Shown here: one piece after another, positions 4,240 through 12,218 of the stretch | Layout of the letters: each line of letters opens with the position of its first letter | How positions within the stretch are numbered: position 1 is the stretch's first letter | Sequence record: NC_028780.1 | DNA length: 64,000 nt | Reading direction: 5' to 3' (one strand) | DNA from: Escherichia phage slur07 | Notes under the pieces: model-generated | The model's input: only the letters and a program-made list of their open reading frames with translations | Database searches by the model: none | Told to the model about the DNA's origin: nothing | Position numbers and translations under genes: made by a program

Positions 4240-4713
4240 ATGAAAACATATCAAGAATTTATTACTGAAGCAGCTATTAATTCTCAAATTATTGCTGAAT
4301 CTTTTACTGATCTTTTGAAATTTAAAAAAGGTCAAAAAATCACTGCTGTATTGGATGATGGTACAGAAGTTGAGATGGATGTACAGGGATATAATTATGC
4401 AGTAGATGGAAAACTGTATAATAAATCTCATGCTAAATTTGATTCATTTGACGACTTTGTTAATACAGTTGAAGATGAAAAAACTCGTAGATCCATTGCA
4501 ACTGGTGATGCTAAGGTTCTTATGGCACACGGCCATGAACGCATTCGCGCTAAGCAGAATAAAATGGGCGAAGATAATTTCGCATTAGTTGGTTATCAAT
4601 CTGGTAAACAAACTTATGGTTATCAGCGTACTGCTACCATGTATAACAAAAATGGTAAAATCGCTTTCGTGAATAGTAAAGGTTCTGTTCAGTACGTCAA
4701 ATCATTCAAATAA
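4240..4713 (+). CDS. internal protein with capsid-targeting sequence
   Basis: 157 aa, N-terminus MKTYQEFITEAAINSQ (T4 IP-type CTS, ITE cleavage motif). Confidence 0.75.
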   Translation: MKTYQEFITEAAINSQIIAESFTDLLKFKKGQKITAVLDDGTEVEMDVQGYNYAVDGKLYNKSHAKFDSFDDFVNTVEDEKTRRSIATGDAKVLMAHGHERIRAKQNKMGEDNFALVGYQSGKQTYGYQRTATMYNKNGKIAFVNSKGSVQYVKSFK

Positions 4714-4866
4714 GCAAATAAGAAATATGGGAACAAGCTGGACCTCATGATTCTATGAGGGATTCCCGCCAACCTGTAATAAGGTCGAGCCCAAGTGCGG
4801 TAATGGGTAAATACAGAAATGGAAAATTCATGCGCCATGGAATGGCCCAAATTTAGAGAGAATAAA

Positions 4867-7387: not shown

Positions 7388-7933
7388 ATGAGAAAAGCAC
7401 TACTCGCTGGTCTATTGGCCATTTCAATGATGGCACATAGCTCCGAGCATACTTTCAGTAATGTCCAACTCGATAACATGCGTTACGCGTATCAATTCGG
7501 GGAACAATTTTCTAAGGATGGAAAATATAAAACACATAAAAATATCCACAAGAGCGGATTAGGTCATATAATGGCAGCCATTTTATGGCAAGAAAGCTCT
7601 GGCGGAGTTAATTTAAAATCTAAACCAAAGCATCACGCTTATGGAATGTTCCAAAATTATTTGCCTACTATGCGAGCGAGAGTTAAGGAACTTGGTTATA
7701 ATATGACCGATGCTGAAATAAAAAGAATGTTGAATAAACGGTCCAATTCAGCTTCCTGGGCGTACATTGAACTTTCTTATTGGTTAAATATACATAAGGG
7801 CGATATAAGAAAAGCAATATCCTCTTATAATTCGGGATGGAATGTTAAAGCAGGTTCTAGATATGCTTCTGAAGTCCTAGAAAAGGCTAATTACCTTAAA
7901 AATAATAAACTTTTGGAAATAGTAAATGACTAA
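7388..7933 (+). CDS. secreted lysozyme-like / lytic transglycosylase-like protein
   Basis: signal peptide; ESSGG and YGMFQ motifs typical of SLT/lysozyme-like fold. Confidence 0.55.
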   Translation: MRKALLAGLLAISMMAHSSEHTFSNVQLDNMRYAYQFGEQFSKDGKYKTHKNIHKSGLGHIMAAILWQESSGGVNLKSKPKHHAYGMFQNYLPTMRARVKELGYNMTDAEIKRMLNKRSNSASWAYIELSYWLNIHKGDIRKAISSYNSGWNVKAGSRYASEVLEKANYLKNNKLLEIVND

Positions 7934-8267
7934 AATTTTGGTTTTATGTATAGGATTAATTTCATTTTCTGCGTTAGCAGATACATCATATACTGAAATT
8001 AGAGAGTATGTAAACCGTACTGCAGCGGATTATTGCGGGAAAAATAAAGCATGTCAAGCTGAATTTGCACAGAAATTAATATATGCATATAAAGACGGAG
8101 AAAGAGATAAATCAAGTAGATACAAAAACGATACATTATTAAAACGATATGCTAAAAAGTGGAATACCTTAGAATGTTCAGTTGCGGAGGAGAAAGATAA
8201 AGCCGCTTGTCATTCAATGGTTGACCGTTTGGTAGATTCTTATAATCGAGGATTGAGTACTAGATGA
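7926..8267 (+). CDS. small secreted protein (position of T4 vs)
   Basis: 113 aa with N-terminal signal peptide ending ALA-DT. Confidence 0.45.
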   Translation: MTKILVLCIGLISFSALADTSYTEIREYVNRTAADYCGKNKACQAEFAQKLIYAYKDGERDKSSRYKNDTLLKRYAKKWNTLECSVAEEKDKAACHSMVDRLVDSYNRGLSTR

Positions 8268-8731
8268 TTGTAAAATATATCAAGGGCGATATTGTCGCCC
8301 TTTTCGCTGAAGGTAAAAATATTGCGCATGGATGCAATTGTTTTCATACTATGGGTTCAGGCGTAGCGGGTCAATTAACCAAAGCTTTCCCTAAAATTTT
8401 GGAAGCTGATAAATTACAGACTGAATGGGGTGATGTAACTAAACTCGGTTCTTACTCAGTCTATGAAAAATACTTTAGGACTCATAAAGCGTATTGCTTT
8501 AATCTTTATACTCAATTTCAACCAGGGCCAAATTTTGAGTATTCCGCTTTAATGAATTGTATGTTAGAATTAAATGAGTTTGGTGAAAATAAACTGATTA
8601 AACCTACAATCTATATGCCTAGGATTGGTGCAGGCATAGGTAAAGGGAACTGGGATATTATTGAGGGGATTTTAGATACATATTCCTCTAAATTAGAAAT
8701 TGTGATTGTTGATTGGGAACCGTTATTATGA
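8264..8731 (+). CDS. macro-domain protein (putative ADP-ribose binding/hydrolase)
   Basis: KGDIVALFAEG...IAHGCNCFHTMGSGVAGQL and PRIGAGIGKGNWD glycine loops resemble macro-domain phosphate-binding loops. Confidence 0.55.
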   Translation: MIVKYIKGDIVALFAEGKNIAHGCNCFHTMGSGVAGQLTKAFPKILEADKLQTEWGDVTKLGSYSVYEKYFRTHKAYCFNLYTQFQPGPNFEYSALMNCMLELNEFGENKLIKPTIYMPRIGAGIGKGNWDIIEGILDTYSSKLEIVIVDWEPLL

Positions 8732-8940
8732 ATATACATTATCCACATCCGTATGACCCAAAGAATAAGGCAGTAATTATTCGTCAATGGGAACGCATTT
8801 GTCGTACTAAATGTCCAATTAATAGTCCACATGATGTAGATAAAGACTACATTGGAACATTCGTTGAATATACCTTTATTGATAAGAAAGGTCGTAAACA
8901 GCATGTAGAAGAATACTGCTTAAAGGTGACATGGTTATGA
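8728..8940 (+). CDS. hypothetical small protein
   Basis: 70 aa, ATGA overlap. Confidence 0.45.
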   Translation: MNIHYPHPYDPKNKAVIIRQWERICRTKCPINSPHDVDKDYIGTFVEYTFIDKKGRKQHVEEYCLKVTWL

Positions 8941-9143
8941 GCCAAACTAGTATTCTTAAAAATGCCCACTGTGAAAAGTGTAAATGGCCGGTTGTTTTTG
9001 CTTTATGCAACGATGAAATGGCTTGTGATTTCGATTATTGGTGCTATTGTTCTAATAAAGGATGCATCAATCATAAAGGTGAAGGATTTTATTCGGGATT
9101 TTATCCTTATCCAGATTTCGTTAAAGAAGGTAAACCGAAATGA
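8937..9143 (+). CDS. cysteine-rich small protein (putative zinc binding)
   Basis: 68 aa with 9 Cys (CEKC...CNDEMAC...WCYC...C). Confidence 0.45.
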   Translation: MSQTSILKNAHCEKCKWPVVFALCNDEMACDFDYWCYCSNKGCINHKGEGFYSGFYPYPDFVKEGKPK

Positions 9144-9313
9144 ATAGTTCTGAGTTACAATATGAAGTGTTACGTGAACTTGATAATTTAATTGAACTCG
9201 CTGTTAATAAAGGTTTTGCCATTGGAATTGGTCAAAAAGATACTGATCATTTAACTGTGGAAATATTTAAGCAAAAGCGAATTATTTTAAAACTTTTGGA
9301 AATTAATATATGA
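9140..9313 (+). CDS. hypothetical small protein
   Basis: 57 codons, ATGA overlaps at both ends. Confidence 0.4.
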   Translation: MNSSELQYEVLRELDNLIELAVNKGFAIGIGQKDTDHLTVEIFKQKRIILKLLEINI

Positions 9314-9495
9314 GTTTAAGCAAAGAACAAAAAGACAAACTCTTTTCTCTTATCCACGAAGTTATGGATAAAAACAGTGAATTGGAAAAAGTTTGTGATG
9401 AATGCGGTCCTTTTAATGCAAATGAATACGAAGAACTTTCTAAAGAATTCGATAATAAAGAACAAGAACTTATTAATTATATAAATTCCTTATGA
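9310..9495 (+). CDS. small helical protein (EQK-family paralogue)
   Basis: 61 aa MSLSKEQKDKLFSL...; resembles 9492, 11491, 11697 ORFs. Confidence 0.45.
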   Translation: MSLSKEQKDKLFSLIHEVMDKNSELEKVCDECGPFNANEYEELSKEFDNKEQELINYINSL

Positions 9496-9680
9496 TTACT
9501 CGCGAACAAAAGAACGAAATATTATTTTTAGTTGGTGAAATTATTAGTTTAGAAAAGGATTTGTCTTTTGAAATATCTTCTGAATATGGAGATGCCGAAA
9601 CATATTACGAATTAGTAAAATCTATCGATAAAGTTGAAAATGATTTAGAAACATATTTAGAAAATTTAACTAAGGACTAA
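9492..9680 (+). CDS. small helical protein (EQK-family paralogue)
   Basis: 62 aa MITREQKNEILFLV... Confidence 0.45.
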   Translation: MITREQKNEILFLVGEIISLEKDLSFEISSEYGDAETYYELVKSIDKVENDLETYLENLTKD

Positions 9681-9681
9681 G

Positions 9682-10263
9682 ATGGCGAGTTTAATTTTTA
9701 CTTATGCAGCAATGAATGCTGGAAAATCTGCTTCTCTTTTGACTGCTGCACATAATTATAAAGAACGTGGAATGAGTGTATTAGTTCTTAAGCCTGCTAT
9801 TGATACTCGCGATTCTGTCTGTGAAGTCGTTTCTCGCATTGGAATTAAGCAGGAAGCGAATATTATTACAGATGATATGGATATTTTCGAGTTCTATAAA
9901 TGGGCTGAAGCACAAAAAGATATTCATTGCGTATTTGTAGATGAAGCTCAGTTTTTAAAAACTGAACAGGCGCATCAATTGAGCCGAATTGTTGATACAT
10001 ATAATGTTCCTGTTATGGCTTATGGGCTAAGGACTGATTTCGCTGGAAAATTATTTGAAGGTTCTAAAGAACTTTTAGCGATTGCAGATAAACTTATTGA
10101 ACTAAAGGCAGTTTGTCATTGTGGTAAAAAAGCGATTATGACAGCTCGATTAATGGAAGATGGATCACCAGTTAAAGAAGGTAATCAAATCTGTATTGGT
10201 GATGAAATTTATGTTTCTTTGTGTAGAAAACATTGGAATGAATTAACTAAAAAGCTCGGTTAG
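9682..10263 (+). CDS. tk: thymidine kinase
   Basis: 193 aa; P-loop AMNAGKSASL, zinc ribbon CHCGKKA...C; matches T4 Tk. Confidence 0.93.
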   Translation: MASLIFTYAAMNAGKSASLLTAAHNYKERGMSVLVLKPAIDTRDSVCEVVSRIGIKQEANIITDDMDIFEFYKWAEAQKDIHCVFVDEAQFLKTEQAHQLSRIVDTYNVPVMAYGLRTDFAGKLFEGSKELLAIADKLIELKAVCHCGKKAIMTARLMEDGSPVKEGNQICIGDEIYVSLCRKHWNELTKKLG

Positions 10264-10272
10264 TGCAAAAGT

Positions 10273-10280
10273 TATAAATA
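10273..10280 (+). promoter_or_regulatory. T4 late promoter box TATAAATA
   Basis: perfect TATAAATA 25 nt upstream of ATG 10306. Confidence 0.5.
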
Positions 10281-10305
10281 GGTTTATCTAACTAAAGGGG
10301 TATAT

Positions 10306-10518
10306 ATGCTACAATTAACTGAAAAGCAACTTCGCAATCTTACTGTTCTTCAATTAGATGAAATTCGTAGGGAAGTTGGAAATATCATTTCAGCTTTGCG
10401 TCGAGAAGTATCACTCAACCAATCTCCGGCAGACTATACTAGATTGCGAAATTTTGAAAAATACCTTGATAAAGTTAAGGCCGTGCATCGGCATAAAGTA
10501 AATACAGGACAAAAATGA
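10306..10518 (+). CDS. hypothetical small protein
   Basis: 70-aa ORF after late promoter. Confidence 0.5.
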
Positions 10519-10530
10519 TAGGAGGCCTTT

Positions 10531-10824
10531 ATGGCCTTAAAAGCAACGGCACTTTTTGCCATGCTAGGATTGTCATTTGTTTTATCTCCATCGATTGAAG
10601 CGAATGTCGATCCTCATTTTGATAAATTTATGGAATCTGGTATTAGGCACGTTTATATGCTTTTTGAAAATAAAAGCGTAGAATCGTCTGAACAATTCTA
10701 TAGTTTTATGAGAACGACCTATAAAAATGACCCGTGCTCTTCTGATTTTGAATGTATAGAACGAGGCGCGGAGATGGCACAATCATACGCTAGAATTATG
10801 AACATTAAATTGGAGACTGAATGA
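10531..10824 (+). CDS. rI: lysis-inhibition regulator RI
   Basis: 97 aa with signal-anchor MALKATALFAMLGLSFVL...; matches T4 RI length and N-terminus as recalled. Confidence 0.85.
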   Translation: MALKATALFAMLGLSFVLSPSIEANVDPHFDKFMESGIRHVYMLFENKSVESSEQFYSFMRTTYKNDPCSSDFECIERGAEMAQSYARIMNIKLETE

Positions 10825-11207
10825 AATTCAGCGACTTTTCACAAAGTGGAAAACCTTCAAAGGCAGATGAATACTTAGGTTTATTAATGGCTGCACAAGC
10901 TTATTTTCATTCTGCACATTTTGAAACTAAAAGTTATGCTAGACACAAAGCATACGATTTTATTTTCTCCGAGTTGCCAGATTTGATTGATAAATTTGGT
11001 GAGCAATATTTGGGGTATTCTGGTAGAAAATACACACCTTCAATTCCAGATGCCAGTAAACTTCCTACCGACACAATTAAAATGATTGATCACATACTAG
11101 ACCAATCTAACAGCATTTATAAAGAAATGCCTCCAGCCATCCAAAGCACGATAGATGATATTACTGGAATGTTTTACCAGAGTAAGTATCTTCTTTCCCT
11201 CGAATAA
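10821..11207 (+). CDS. hypothetical protein (rI.1 position)
   Basis: 128-aa ORF overlapping rI stop. Confidence 0.55.
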
Positions 11208-11211
11208 CATT

Positions 11212-11236
11212 AGTCTCCTTCGGGAGACTTTTTTCA
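11212..11236 (+). terminator. rho-independent terminator-like hairpin
   Basis: AGTCTCC-TTCG-GGAGACT followed by TTTTTT. Confidence 0.55.
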
Positions 11237-11244
11237 TTTTACCG

Positions 11245-11275
11245 GTTTACTTTCCGTTTGAGCTGTGGTACTATA
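11245..11275 (+). promoter_or_regulatory. T4-type early promoter
   Basis: GTTTAC 11245-11250, TACTAT near 11270. Confidence 0.55.
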
Positions 11276-11302
11276 CAACTATCGGATAAAGAGGAGAACA
11301 TC

Positions 11303-11491
11303 ATGAAAATTGAAGCACTTAATCAAGAAGGAAATATCTACGTCATCATTAATGGTGATTTTTTCGTCGACATGGATGAAGTTACTAGTGAAGAACTTGT
11401 AGAATTTCTTAAGAAACGTTATAATATGTGTGATGAAGTTGCAACTCACATGGCGTGTGCAATATTCTCTCTTTCATATGTGGTGGAATAA
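11303..11491 (+). CDS. hypothetical small protein
   Basis: 62 aa, GAGGAG RBS. Confidence 0.45.
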
Positions 11492-11694
11492 TGATTAGTA
11501 TCGAACAAGCGGATAAAATTAAGGAATTGGTAGCTTTAATTCGTAAAGCAGATGAGGAACTTAGTGACTTTGCTTGGTTTTCGTCAGGCATTGCAAATAA
11601 AAGTATTGAAGAACTTGAAGATAAAGTTAATAATGCTGTAGAAGCGTTAGATATGTTTCTTGATGAAATTATCGATCATAATACGAGAGTTTAA
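11491..11694 (+). CDS. small helical protein (EQK-family paralogue)
   Basis: 67 aa [14 protein letters not shown]... Confidence 0.45.
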   Translation: MISIEQADKIKELVALIRKADEELSDFAWFSSGIANKSIEELEDKVNNAVEALDMFLDEIIDHNTRV

Positions 11695-11696
11695 GT

Positions 11697-11891
11697 ATGC
11701 TAACACGCGAACAGTTTGAAAAAATCATTAAATTAGCACGTGATATTGAAATAGATTCATATCAATTAGCAGTTGAGCATTGTGAAGGATATTCATACGA
11801 CGGTATAGAAGCAGCTAAAAAGGATTTGGATAAATCCAAAGCTAAGTTAGTTCAATATCTTGAAATGATTAGGTGGAATAATGAAAACTGA
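11697..11891 (+). CDS. small helical protein (EQK-family paralogue)
   Basis: 64 aa MLTREQFEKIIKLA... Confidence 0.45.
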   Translation: MLTREQFEKIIKLARDIEIDSYQLAVEHCEGYSYDGIEAAKKDLDKSKAKLVQYLEMIRWNNEN

Positions 11892-12054
11892 AAAGCAGAT
11901 GTTTTTAATGAAGCTAATTGAAGAATATGCTAATGCAGTTTCTGACTATGAATGTTCTTCTCGTGAAAGAGGTACAGCTTTCGCAAAGGAAGAAATGAAA
12001 ATCATGGTTGATGCTCATACAAAGCTTCAGAATTTTATCGAAAACGTCATTTAA
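11881..12054 (+). CDS. small helical protein (possible EQK-family member)
   Basis: 57 codons MKTEKQMFLMKLIEE... Confidence 0.4.
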   Translation: MKTEKQMFLMKLIEEYANAVSDYECSSRERGTAFAKEEMKIMVDAHTKLQNFIENVI

Positions 12055-12056
12055 TG

Positions 12057-12086
12057 GTTTACAAGTTGGCAAGGTTATGGTATAGT
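12057..12086 (+). promoter_or_regulatory. T4-type early promoter
   Basis: GTTTAC 12057-12062, TATAGT 12081-12086. Confidence 0.5.
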
Positions 12087-12218
12087 AATCTTGTCAACTG
12101 CCAAGGAGAAGAGAATGAAAGTTTTGTTTGTTGTGTATGTGGTGATTCAATATAATTACCCAATGTTTACTTATAATCTGGTGAACAACATTATTGATAT
12201 GATTCAGAGGAGTATGTA

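Follow-up and report, generated by a model that had tools for sequence, protein, structure and literature searches.

Five small open reading frames around tk and rI of a T4-like phage are diverged copies of the two-helix DUF7438 protein family

The early region around tk and rI in Escherichia phage slur07 (NC_028780.1) contains several very small open reading frames (ORFs), which raises the question of whether they are copies of one gene and what their products might do. A preliminary description of the window, i.e., the whole stretch of 64,000 nucleotides analysed here, had read the ORFs starting at 9310, 9492, 11491 and 11697, and possibly another one at 11881, as a dispersed family of helical proteins sharing an N-terminal E-Q motif, and had regarded such multi-copy early small proteins as typical host-takeover or anti-defence factors. 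The window belongs to a Tequatrovirus (T4/T6-like) genome, and we found the five ORFs to be genuine, diverged copies of a single two-helix protein family of about 60 residues. Their T4 orthologues are tk.2, tk.1, mobD.4, mobD.3 and mobD.2a (copies A to E, Table 1), and among themselves they are anciently diverged paralogues, in a family filed as Pfam DUF7438 and PHROGs 653, 2758 and 4859. Being catalogued in both Pfam and the PHROGs, the family is already known, and its finding is no discovery.

All five ORFs matched the Pfam model PF24219 (DUF7438) as a single domain and over the full length of the model, with E values of 1e-13 to 3e-19 and scores of 69.4 (tk.2), 51.7 (tk.1), 56.7 (mobD.4), 64.1 (mobD.3) and 56.5 bits (mobD.2a), the gathering cut-off being 25 bits. 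The 57 positions of the model were covered from 1 to 57 in copies A to D and from 1 to 56 in mobD.2a, by proteins of 57–67 aa. The best PHROG match was phrog_653 for copies A to D (E 1e-21 to 2e-25) and its sister family phrog_2758 for copy E (E 6e-36), which is the most divergent of the five copies. Pairwise phmmer searches and leave-one-out HMMs were run against the 915 ORFs of the window. Among these, tk.2 was connected by phmmer to tk.1 (E 2e-4) and to mobD.3 (E 6e-3 to 9e-3), and no significant pairwise match to another copy was obtained for mobD.4 or mobD.2a. When HMMs were built with one copy left out, the omitted copy was always the best non-training match, with E values of 1.6e-5 for tk.2, 3.4e-7 for tk.1, 0.022 for mobD.4, 6e-4 for mobD.3 and 0.18 for mobD.2a. 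Profile-profile comparison by hhalign aligned the mobD.4 and mobD.2a orthologue sets over their full length with the profile of tk.1, tk.2 and mobD.3, at probabilities of 95.8% (E 7.8e-9) and 75% (E 2.5e-5), respectively. The sequence comparisons thus support homology without the Pfam model as well, the support for mobD.2a being the weakest. Because the Pfam matches, the leave-one-out HMMs and the profile-profile comparisons agree, we regard all five ORFs as homologous. The four ORFs grouped together in the preliminary description indeed form one family, the doubtful one at 11881 is a member, and the alignment and HMM check proposed there revealed similarity beyond chance.

Table 1. Positions of the five DUF7438 genes and of a terminator-like element in the window.
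Feature	Position	Strand	Product	Evidence
Copy A, tk.2 orthologue	9310..9495	+	61 aa, net charge -8	PF24219 E 3.3e-19; phrog_653
Copy B, tk.1 orthologue	9492..9680	+	62 aa, net charge -10	PF24219 E 1.1e-13; phrog_653
Intrinsic-terminator-like hairpin with T-run, after rI.-1	11212..11229	+		Terminator scan
Copy C, mobD.4 orthologue	11491..11694	+	67 aa, charge -9	PF24219 E 3.2e-15; phrog_653; hhalign 95.8%; T4 annotation
Copy D, mobD.3 orthologue	11697..11891	+	64 aa, net charge -3	PF24219 E 1.5e-17; phrog_653
Copy E, mobD.2a orthologue	11881..12054	+	57 aa, charge -2	PF24219 E 3.7e-15; phrog_2758; hhalign 75%

The DUF7438 genes are packed in tight, overlapping early operons. The start codon of copy A overlaps the stop codon of the upstream ORF (ATGA), copy B overlaps copy A in the same way and ends 1 nt before the start codon of tk, copy C shares one base of its start with the stop codon of mobD.5 (TAATG), and copy E overlaps copy D by 11 nt. 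They stand in two clusters around tk/rI as previously described, although not dispersed but as two tandem arrays 1.8 kb apart, flanking the genes tk-rI.1-rI-rI.-1-mobD.5. The terminator-like hairpin separates two transcription units, that of tk/rI and that of mobD.5, the latter bearing copies C to E; an early promoter has been mentioned for mobD.5 of T4 (PMC1702504). No sixth DUF7438 copy was present in the 64-kb window, and the whole T4 genome contained no further one. At the DNA level, repeats between the copies amount only to stretches of about 18–24 nt, located at the start codon and in one segment of helix 2, and so give no indication that copies were recently duplicated or underwent gene conversion.

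Some neighbouring genes were tested for membership as well. The helical neighbours rI.1 (10306-10518) and ORF 9140-9313 are non-members (hhalign probability about 1% each), and mobD.5 belongs to a different PHROG. T4 pseT.1, with an E value of 0.0085 against the family HMM, an hhalign probability of 15% and no Pfam match, and RB43ORF146c, with an hhalign probability of 19%, are possible distant relatives.

The same gene order and the same two clusters around tk/rI are present in T4 and T6. The four intact T4 copies are 90–98% identical to those of the window (93% for tk.2, with a dN/dS of 0.14, 98% for tk.1 and 97% for mobD.3), and the three T6 copies compared are 97–100% identical, mobD.3 reaching 100%. 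The phages differ only at the strain level, namely in a sixth copy of T6, which the window lacks, and in mobD.4, which codes for 67 aa here (counted from the ATG at 11491) and in T6 and for 60 aa in T4, where an indel leaves the inter-helix loop 7 residues shorter. Moreover, mobD.2a is intact at full length in the window, whereas it is frameshifted and split into two pieces in the T4 reference record NC_000866. The whole 3-kb block recurs with at least 95% identity in about 490 phage records. Among the Straboviridae sampled, the copy number falls from six (T6) and five (T4 and this window) to three, two, one and none in others, and the copy conserved across genera is the tk-proximal upstream one. 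A neighbour-joining tree contained five to six orthologous subfamilies common to Tequatrovirus, Mosigvirus, Dhakavirus and Gelderlandvirus, and the subfamilies predate the genus splits. The dN/dS values of the copies of 0.14–0.46, at dN values of about 1.3 to 3 times that of Tk, indicate that they are real genes under purifying selection. The family has a narrow range: among 1.84 billion representatives, E ≤ 1e-3 was reached by only 35 clusters (at 50% identity). Nearly all of these come from T4-like phages, and unrelated phage contigs contribute rare members.

The E-Q motif of the preliminary description was recovered in the family alignments as a shared N-terminus of the form M-(I/L)-(T/S)-x-E-Q-x-x-K-(I/L)-x-x-L, accompanied by a shared C-terminus, L-x-x-(Y/F)-(L/I)-(E/D/N)-x-(L/I), and a conserved Gly in the loop; the residues conserved in the family are T3/E5/Q6, G31 and L52/(F/Y)55/L56/L59. 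AlphaFold2 models agreed with the helical character suggested before, yielding hairpins of helices 5-30 and 37-60 for copy A (pLDDT 92.9) and 4-30 and 36-56 for copy E (pLDDT 94.1). Each copy is predicted to form one antiparallel hairpin of two helices around a narrow a/d heptad core, which contains Ala or Ser at mid-helix and widens to a broader hydrophobic cluster where the N- and C-termini come together at the open end. Strong acidity marks the surface (family median net charge -7, pI 4.4), with only mildly acidic mobD.3 and mobD.2a copies. Foldseek searches with two models against the PDB gave no match with E < 0.001, all matches having E values above 0.1 and representing generic helical hairpins such as Rop, CsoR/FrmR, ZraP and designed bundles. 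Searching BFVD also gave none below 0.001 and matched only uncharacterised phage proteins. A sequence-profile search of the PDB yielded nothing significant; its best match was 23aa_A, named 'Anti-CRISPR protein', with an E value of 0.038 and fragmented into three pieces. Neither Pfam nor PHROG searches revealed a catalytic or nucleic-acid-binding domain in the five ORFs, and the proteins most likely act without catalysis.

In T4, all four family proteins checked are made in infected cells: the RNA is early in each case, and the protein is early for MobD.3 and MobD.4 and middle for Tk.1 and Tk.2 (PMC9697503 supplement). In the laboratory, T4 can spare each gene singly: the family genes are non-essential by HIDEN-SEQ and scored as 'Not Fit' in CRISPRi-ART, i.e., without a knock-down phenotype, and the nrdC.11-mobD.3 region can be deleted (PMC9825161). 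No family member has been reported as a hit in T4 transposon screens covering RexAB, RnlAB, CBASS, DarTG1, DarTG2 and minimal medium, and no functional study of DUF7438/PF24219, the PHROG families or the named genes turned up in our literature search.

The explanation that fits best overall, to which we give about an even chance, is a diverged family of hairpin proteins acting as small acidic protein-binding modulators. Early in infection, these modules would bind to proteins of the host or the phage and modulate them, probably as dimers forming four-helix bundles, with each orthologous subfamily keeping its own partner. Their role would be accessory or conditional, in host range, counter-defence or host take-over, and the functions of the paralogues may overlap. 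We infer the mechanistic half of this explanation from size, charge, fold, timing and dispensability. The strong conservation within Tequatrovirus is unlike that of a fast arms-race gene set and speaks against it, as do the generic nature of the fold matches, the lack of family hits in the T4 screens and the mild acidity of two of the copies. As to the host-takeover or anti-defence role supposed from the outset, the multi-copy, helical and early-transcribed nature of the family is borne out by PF24219, AlphaFold2 and PMC9697503, and the role itself is no more than a plausible guess. The early, acidic and dispensable nature of the proteins and the proximity of tk.4 count for it; the lack of a screen hit, of a CRISPRi phenotype and of any search link to a characterised inhibitor counts against it. 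Paralogue redundancy could mask single-gene phenotypes, and the screens therefore do not refute the idea.

Small phage-encoded inhibitors of host proteins, such as anti-restriction and anti-CRISPR proteins, are likewise acidic, early and dispensable. The family shares with them these general properties only, along with a location in the variable early region next to a gene with a reported anti-DarTG2 function, and no homology to any characterised inhibitor was found. The paralogues might be specifically counter-defence inhibitors, i.e., acidic hairpins and possibly nucleic-acid mimics, which would each block a different immune nuclease or sensor of the host and would have been duplicated under host pressure. 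We consider this unlikely, even though the copy number varies between genera, and tk.4, reported in a preprint to encode the anti-DarTG2 factor AdfM, lies two (T4) or four genes (this window) upstream of the family genes. The name of the 23aa_A match points the same way, but the match is fragmentary and not significant. Furthermore, the five defence-system screens reported no family hit, the orthologues are stable under purifying selection instead of turning over rapidly, and Pfam, PHROG and Foldseek (PDB and BFVD) revealed no homology to a characterised anti-defence protein. A related proposal, which we hold to be quite unlikely, is that the acidic hairpins combine into homo- and heterodimeric four-helix bundles, each of which would neutralise its own immune protein or other factor of the host; overlap between the copies would then account for the neutral single-gene knockouts and knock-downs in T4.

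An adaptor tying thymidine kinase or neighbouring enzymes into a dNTP-synthesising complex, or another role in phage nucleotide or DNA metabolism, would account for the constant translational coupling of one copy to tk. Indeed, tk is directly preceded by a DUF7438 gene in T4, T6, RB69, S16, MX01, IME523 and Roth51, seven phages from six groups sampled, and the spacing in the window is as close as described above. However, T4-like early-region synteny is conserved in general, and the other four copies are not adjacent to tk. RB43, PSTCR6 and avDM3 encode Tk and have no detectable DUF7438 copy near tk, and distant members occur in phage contigs whose fetched stretches contained no gene called as tk. 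The 'helicase loader' label of phrog_4859 refers to another subfamily of this family and has no independent support. We hold this role to be very unlikely.

Rop, a 63-aa helical hairpin dimerising to a four-helix bundle, resembles the family in its size of about 60 aa and in the predicted antiparallel hairpin with an a/d heptad core, and a Rop mutant superposed on a copy model with TM scores of 0.83–0.88 (Foldseek rank 46). A role as RNA-binding or regulatory dimers like Rop, acting on phage or host transcripts, is still highly improbable: the match has a Foldseek E value of 4.5 and is only a generic helix-hairpin resemblance, Pfam and the PDB profile search revealed no sequence similarity to Rop, and Rop binds RNA, whereas net charges of -8 to -10 speak against nucleic-acid binding. 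We did not assign the family to the Rop-like four-helix-bundle dimers, there being no significant similarity to Rop in sequence or structure. Finally, a chance likeness among AT-rich, helix-prone small ORFs, or non-functional filler kept only for translational coupling, could be read from the non-significant pairwise comparisons of mobD.4 and mobD.2a within the window and from the S/T-x-E-Q start, which resembles a generic helix N-cap, but its probability is negligible and it is already contradicted by the tests run, since all three homology approaches favour common descent, the same tests exclude the helical neighbours rI.1 and 9140-9313, dN/dS stays below 0.5, the proteins are detected in infected cells and the orthologous subfamilies are retained across genera.

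Two database names were rejected. The 'helicase loader' label belongs to phrog_4859, the subfamily holding the sixth copy of T6 (E 5e-39) and the 'tk.1' of RB69 (E 4e-33), and no homology to a loader of the T4 gp59, DnaC or lambda P type emerged, Pfam searches having found no helicase-loader domain; gp59 of T4 is encoded elsewhere, by a longer gene (654 nt). The NCBI name 'molybdopterin-guanine dinucleotide biosynthesis protein MobD', attached to T4 mobD.4 and its homologues, evidently stems from the gene symbol, mobD itself being a homing endonuclease, and Pfam finds only DUF7438, with no homology to Mob-type molybdenum-cofactor enzymes. Even in T4, the most thoroughly studied lytic phage, no function has been assigned to this early-expressed family of five to six copies, which is kept across several genera, and paralogue redundancy offers a likely explanation of why nothing shows up in genome-wide screens. 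The analysis clears the misleading labels, including 'kilA', and gives a clean definition of the members, subfamilies, fold and conserved surface of the family.

The gene assignments listed below were obtained by comparing the window with the annotated T4 reference.

Genes around tk and rI in the window, as assigned by comparison with the T4 reference
Gene	Position	Strand
tk.2	9310-9495	+
tk.1	9492-9680	+
tk	9682-10263	
rI.1	10306-10518	
rI	10531-10824	
rI.-1	10821-11207	
mobD.5	11303-11491	
mobD.4	11491-11694	+
mobD.3	11697-11891	+
mobD.2a	11881-12054	+

The five small ORFs reported in the preliminary description, now identified as tk.2, tk.1, mobD.4, mobD.3 and mobD.2a, were all present as described in the ORF listing of the window. 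They form two tandem arrays, one immediately upstream of tk and the other after mobD.5, the latter being preceded by a terminator-like hairpin (11212-11229) and mobD.5 itself. Stop and start codons of the array genes overlap or abut (ATGA at 9310 and 9492, TAATG at 11491), and mobD.3 and mobD.2a overlap by 11 nt at 11881. For mobD.4, the ORF call uses an upstream GTG at 11455, which overlaps mobD.5, and some database entries, e.g. the protein P0083, likewise begin upstream. Four bases past the mobD.2a stop codon, a strong sigma-70-like promoter match at 12058-12086 (+) (TTTACA, 17-nt spacer, TATAGT and an upstream TG; 10 of 12 positions) suggests the start of a further early transcription unit. 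The region 9100-12100 is 99.5% identical to Shigella phage JK38, and it is matched at ≥95% identity over ≥80% of its length by about 490 records of Tequatrovirus, T6 and RB-type phages among them.

All five ORFs matched the Pfam family PF24219 (DUF7438) end to end, scoring 52-69 bits (cut-off 25), and four of them were placed in phrog_653 and mobD.2a in phrog_2758. Because orthologues of the five genes had probably gone into training the Pfam model, we also ran independent homology tests by pairwise, leave-one-out HMM and profile-profile comparison. Among the window's own 915 ORFs, tk.2 matched tk.1 (E 2e-4) and mobD.3 (E 6e-3) pairwise, and no significant pairwise match was found for mobD.4 or mobD.2a. 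The copy omitted from a leave-one-out HMM was always the top hit among the non-training ORFs, with E values of 1.6e-5 (tk.2), 3.4e-7 (tk.1), 0.022 (mobD.4), 6e-4 (mobD.3) and 0.18 (mobD.2a). Against a tk.1/tk.2/mobD.3 profile, the orthologue sets of mobD.4 (probability 95.8%, E 7.8e-9) and mobD.2a (75%, E 2.5e-5) aligned colinearly over their full length. The Pfam, leave-one-out and profile-profile scores thus bear out the proposed shared motif as similarity beyond chance, and the copy at 11881, which had been listed as doubtful, belongs to the family. That the five ORFs constitute one paralogue family is close to certain. Two neighbouring small helical ORFs with a superficial resemblance were ruled out at about 1% probability each in the same profile-profile test, namely rI.1, which starts with LTEKQLRNL, and the ORF at 9140-9313.

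A family HMM built from a 33-sequence alignment detected these five copies and no more among all ORFs of at least 25 aa in the 64-kb window, and it picked out the same five, and no others, when run on the complete T4 genome. The mobD.2a gene is intact (57 aa) in the window and in T6, and is frameshifted in the T4 reference (NC_000866 57993-58177) into a 38-aa annotated ORF and an unannotated C-terminal piece. Because a recent T4 re-annotation lists mobD.2a as a 174-nt gene, equal in length to that of the window (10.1101/2025.11.20.689424), the frameshift may reflect an error in sequencing or a mutation particular to the strain. The inter-helix loop of mobD.4 is a hotspot of length variation, the protein having 67 aa in the window and T6 and 60 in T4, with further variants of 62-65 aa. 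Two further ORFs are possibly very distant relatives with marginal support, T4 pseT.1 (NC_000866 134908-135135, outside the window; HMM E 0.0085, hhalign 15%, no Pfam match) and an ORF at 7643-7828 of the RB43 locus L011 (hhalign against the family only 19%); both have the N-terminal MI..(E/H)(Q/K) and C-terminal (Y/F)I(Q/D)(S/Q)L(V/I) patterns of the family.

When 1.84 billion representative proteins were searched exhaustively with the HMM, no more than 35 clusters (50% identity) reached E ≤ 1e-3. Nearly all proteins returned by indexed searches came from contigs of phage size, about 165-171 kb, with Escherichia, Shigella or related bacteria as hosts. Copies in other Straboviridae were counted over the 8 kb to either side of tk (for T6, the scan reached some 1.5 kb past the 3-kb block). 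There were six in T6 and five in T4 and the window (Tequatrovirus), three each in RB69 (Mosigvirus) and MX01 (Dhakavirus), two in S16 (Gelderlandvirus), one each in IME523 (Kanagawavirus) and Klebsiella phage Roth51 (group not given in the record), and none in RB43, PSTCR6 and Aeromonas avDM3. What stays constant is a copy of the family immediately upstream of tk, of the tk.1 type in T4, T6, S16 and MX01 and of the tk.2 type in RB69. The sixth copy of T6, without counterpart in the window, lies between mobD.2a and mobD.1 (4618-4803 of the T6 locus L001; Pfam E 1.4e-15, phrog_4859) and bears the annotation "kilA anti-repressor protein".

A neighbour-joining tree resolved five to six orthologous subfamilies common to several genera, which indicates that the duplications are old; similarity among the copies at the DNA level is almost gone. 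Gene names do not track orthology across genera, since the RB69 gene annotated "tk.1" (9797-9976 of locus L005; phrog_4859) sits downstream of rI rather than beside tk and groups nearer to the mobD.4 subfamily. Rare members occur in unrelated phage contigs, one of them encoded behind an AAA_25 primase-helicase gene in the 42-kb contig of a PolA-type phage and another carrying a 57-residue C-terminal extension. The 50-aa protein P0076 from an ENA metagenome contig is a clean chimera of the tk.2 N-terminal helix and the tk.1 C-terminal helix and looks like the deletion product of unequal recombination between tandem tk.2 and tk.1.

AlphaFold2, run with the family alignment, predicted that tk.2 forms one antiparallel helical hairpin (helices 5-30 and 37-60, pLDDT 92.9), and gave the same for mobD.2a, the most divergent copy (helices 4-30 and 36-56, pLDDT 94.1). 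According to column statistics (tk.1 numbering), the a/d heptad core comprises positions 10, 13/14, 17, 20 (Ala), 24 and 27 of helix 1 and 38, 41, 45, 48 (Ala/Ser), 52, 55/56 and 59/60 of helix 2, with small residues at the mid-helix crossing and a conserved Gly in the loop. At the open end, where the termini meet, the hydrophobic cluster is wider, and the polar residues that are conserved best (T3, E5, Q6 and E57) all lie there too. The proteins are acidic, with net charges of -8 (tk.2), -10 (tk.1), -9 (mobD.4), -3 (mobD.3) and -2 (mobD.2a) and family medians of -7 for charge and 4.4 for pI. Pfam and PHROGs detected no catalytic or nucleic-acid-binding domain in the five copies.

Searching the PDB with both models by Foldseek yielded nothing below E 0.1, and the proteins listed were generic helical hairpins or bundles (ZraP, FrmR/CsoR, Rop, Mediator subunits and designed proteins); the proteins returned by BFVD were all uncharacterised and about 60 aa long, and most belonged to T4-like phages. 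The best PDB sequence-profile match, a chain named "Anti-CRISPR protein", was fragmented (E 0.038) and treated as noise. Two functional names on family members appear to be annotation artefacts: "helicase loader", the label of phrog_4859, a DUF7438 subfamily containing the T6 sixth copy and RB69 "tk.1", has no independent basis, and [quoted passage not shown], given by NCBI to mobD.4 homologues, is evidently a misread gene symbol.

Orthologues showed dN/dS values of 0.14-0.46, with dS saturated in the deepest pairs, and their dN was higher than that of Tk in the same phage pairs by a factor of roughly 1.3 to 3. In T4, the RNAs of MobD.3, MobD.4, Tk.1 and Tk.2 all fall into the early class; at the protein level MobD.3 and MobD.4 count as early and Tk.1 and Tk.2 as middle, and MobD.2a was undetected (PMC9697503 supplement). 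A saturating transposon screen scored all five genes as "Non-essential" (preprint 10.1101/2025.11.20.689424) and CRISPRi-ART scored all five as "Not Fit" (PMC11879866), and the nrdC.11-mobD.3 block is deletable (PMC9825161). Challenging the T4 transposon library with RexAB, RnlAB, CBASS, DarTG1, DarTG2 or minimal medium gave hits in genes other than the DUF7438 copies, among them tk.4, named AdfM (10.1101/2025.11.20.689424).

The orthologue of tk.4, a macro-domain gene at 8264-8731 (+) whose T4 product was reported as an anti-DarTG2 factor in the 2025 preprint, lies upstream of the tk-side array, two genes away in T4 and four in the window. It is followed by tk.3 (8728-8940, phrog_2008) and two small genes also found in T6, 8931-9143 and 9140-9313 (+), whereas tk.3 leads directly to tk.2 in the T4 reference. 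The former codes for a Cys-rich 70-aa protein (phrog_2306) that looks zinc-binding, the latter for a 57-aa helical protein (phrog_3452) outside DUF7438.

DUF7438 is thus a genuine, old paralogue family under purifying selection, consisting of small acidic proteins with a predicted two-helix hairpin fold, expressed early, individually dispensable and essentially confined to T-even-like phages. Because the proteins are small, without catalytic residues, and carry a conserved hydrophobic/polar patch at one end of an otherwise variable acidic surface, they would most plausibly bind other proteins, probably as dimers; a role as protein-binding modulators is a tentative proposal to which we give slightly less than an even chance. 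That distinct orthologous subfamilies have been kept suggests that each may have its own partner, and these may be host defence, host house-keeping or phage proteins. Either conditional roles or redundancy would fit the absence of phenotypes for single genes. The family is already catalogued in Pfam and PHROGs, its members are long-annotated T4 genes, and it is an ordinary component of T4's accessory genome, as yet functionally uncharacterised.
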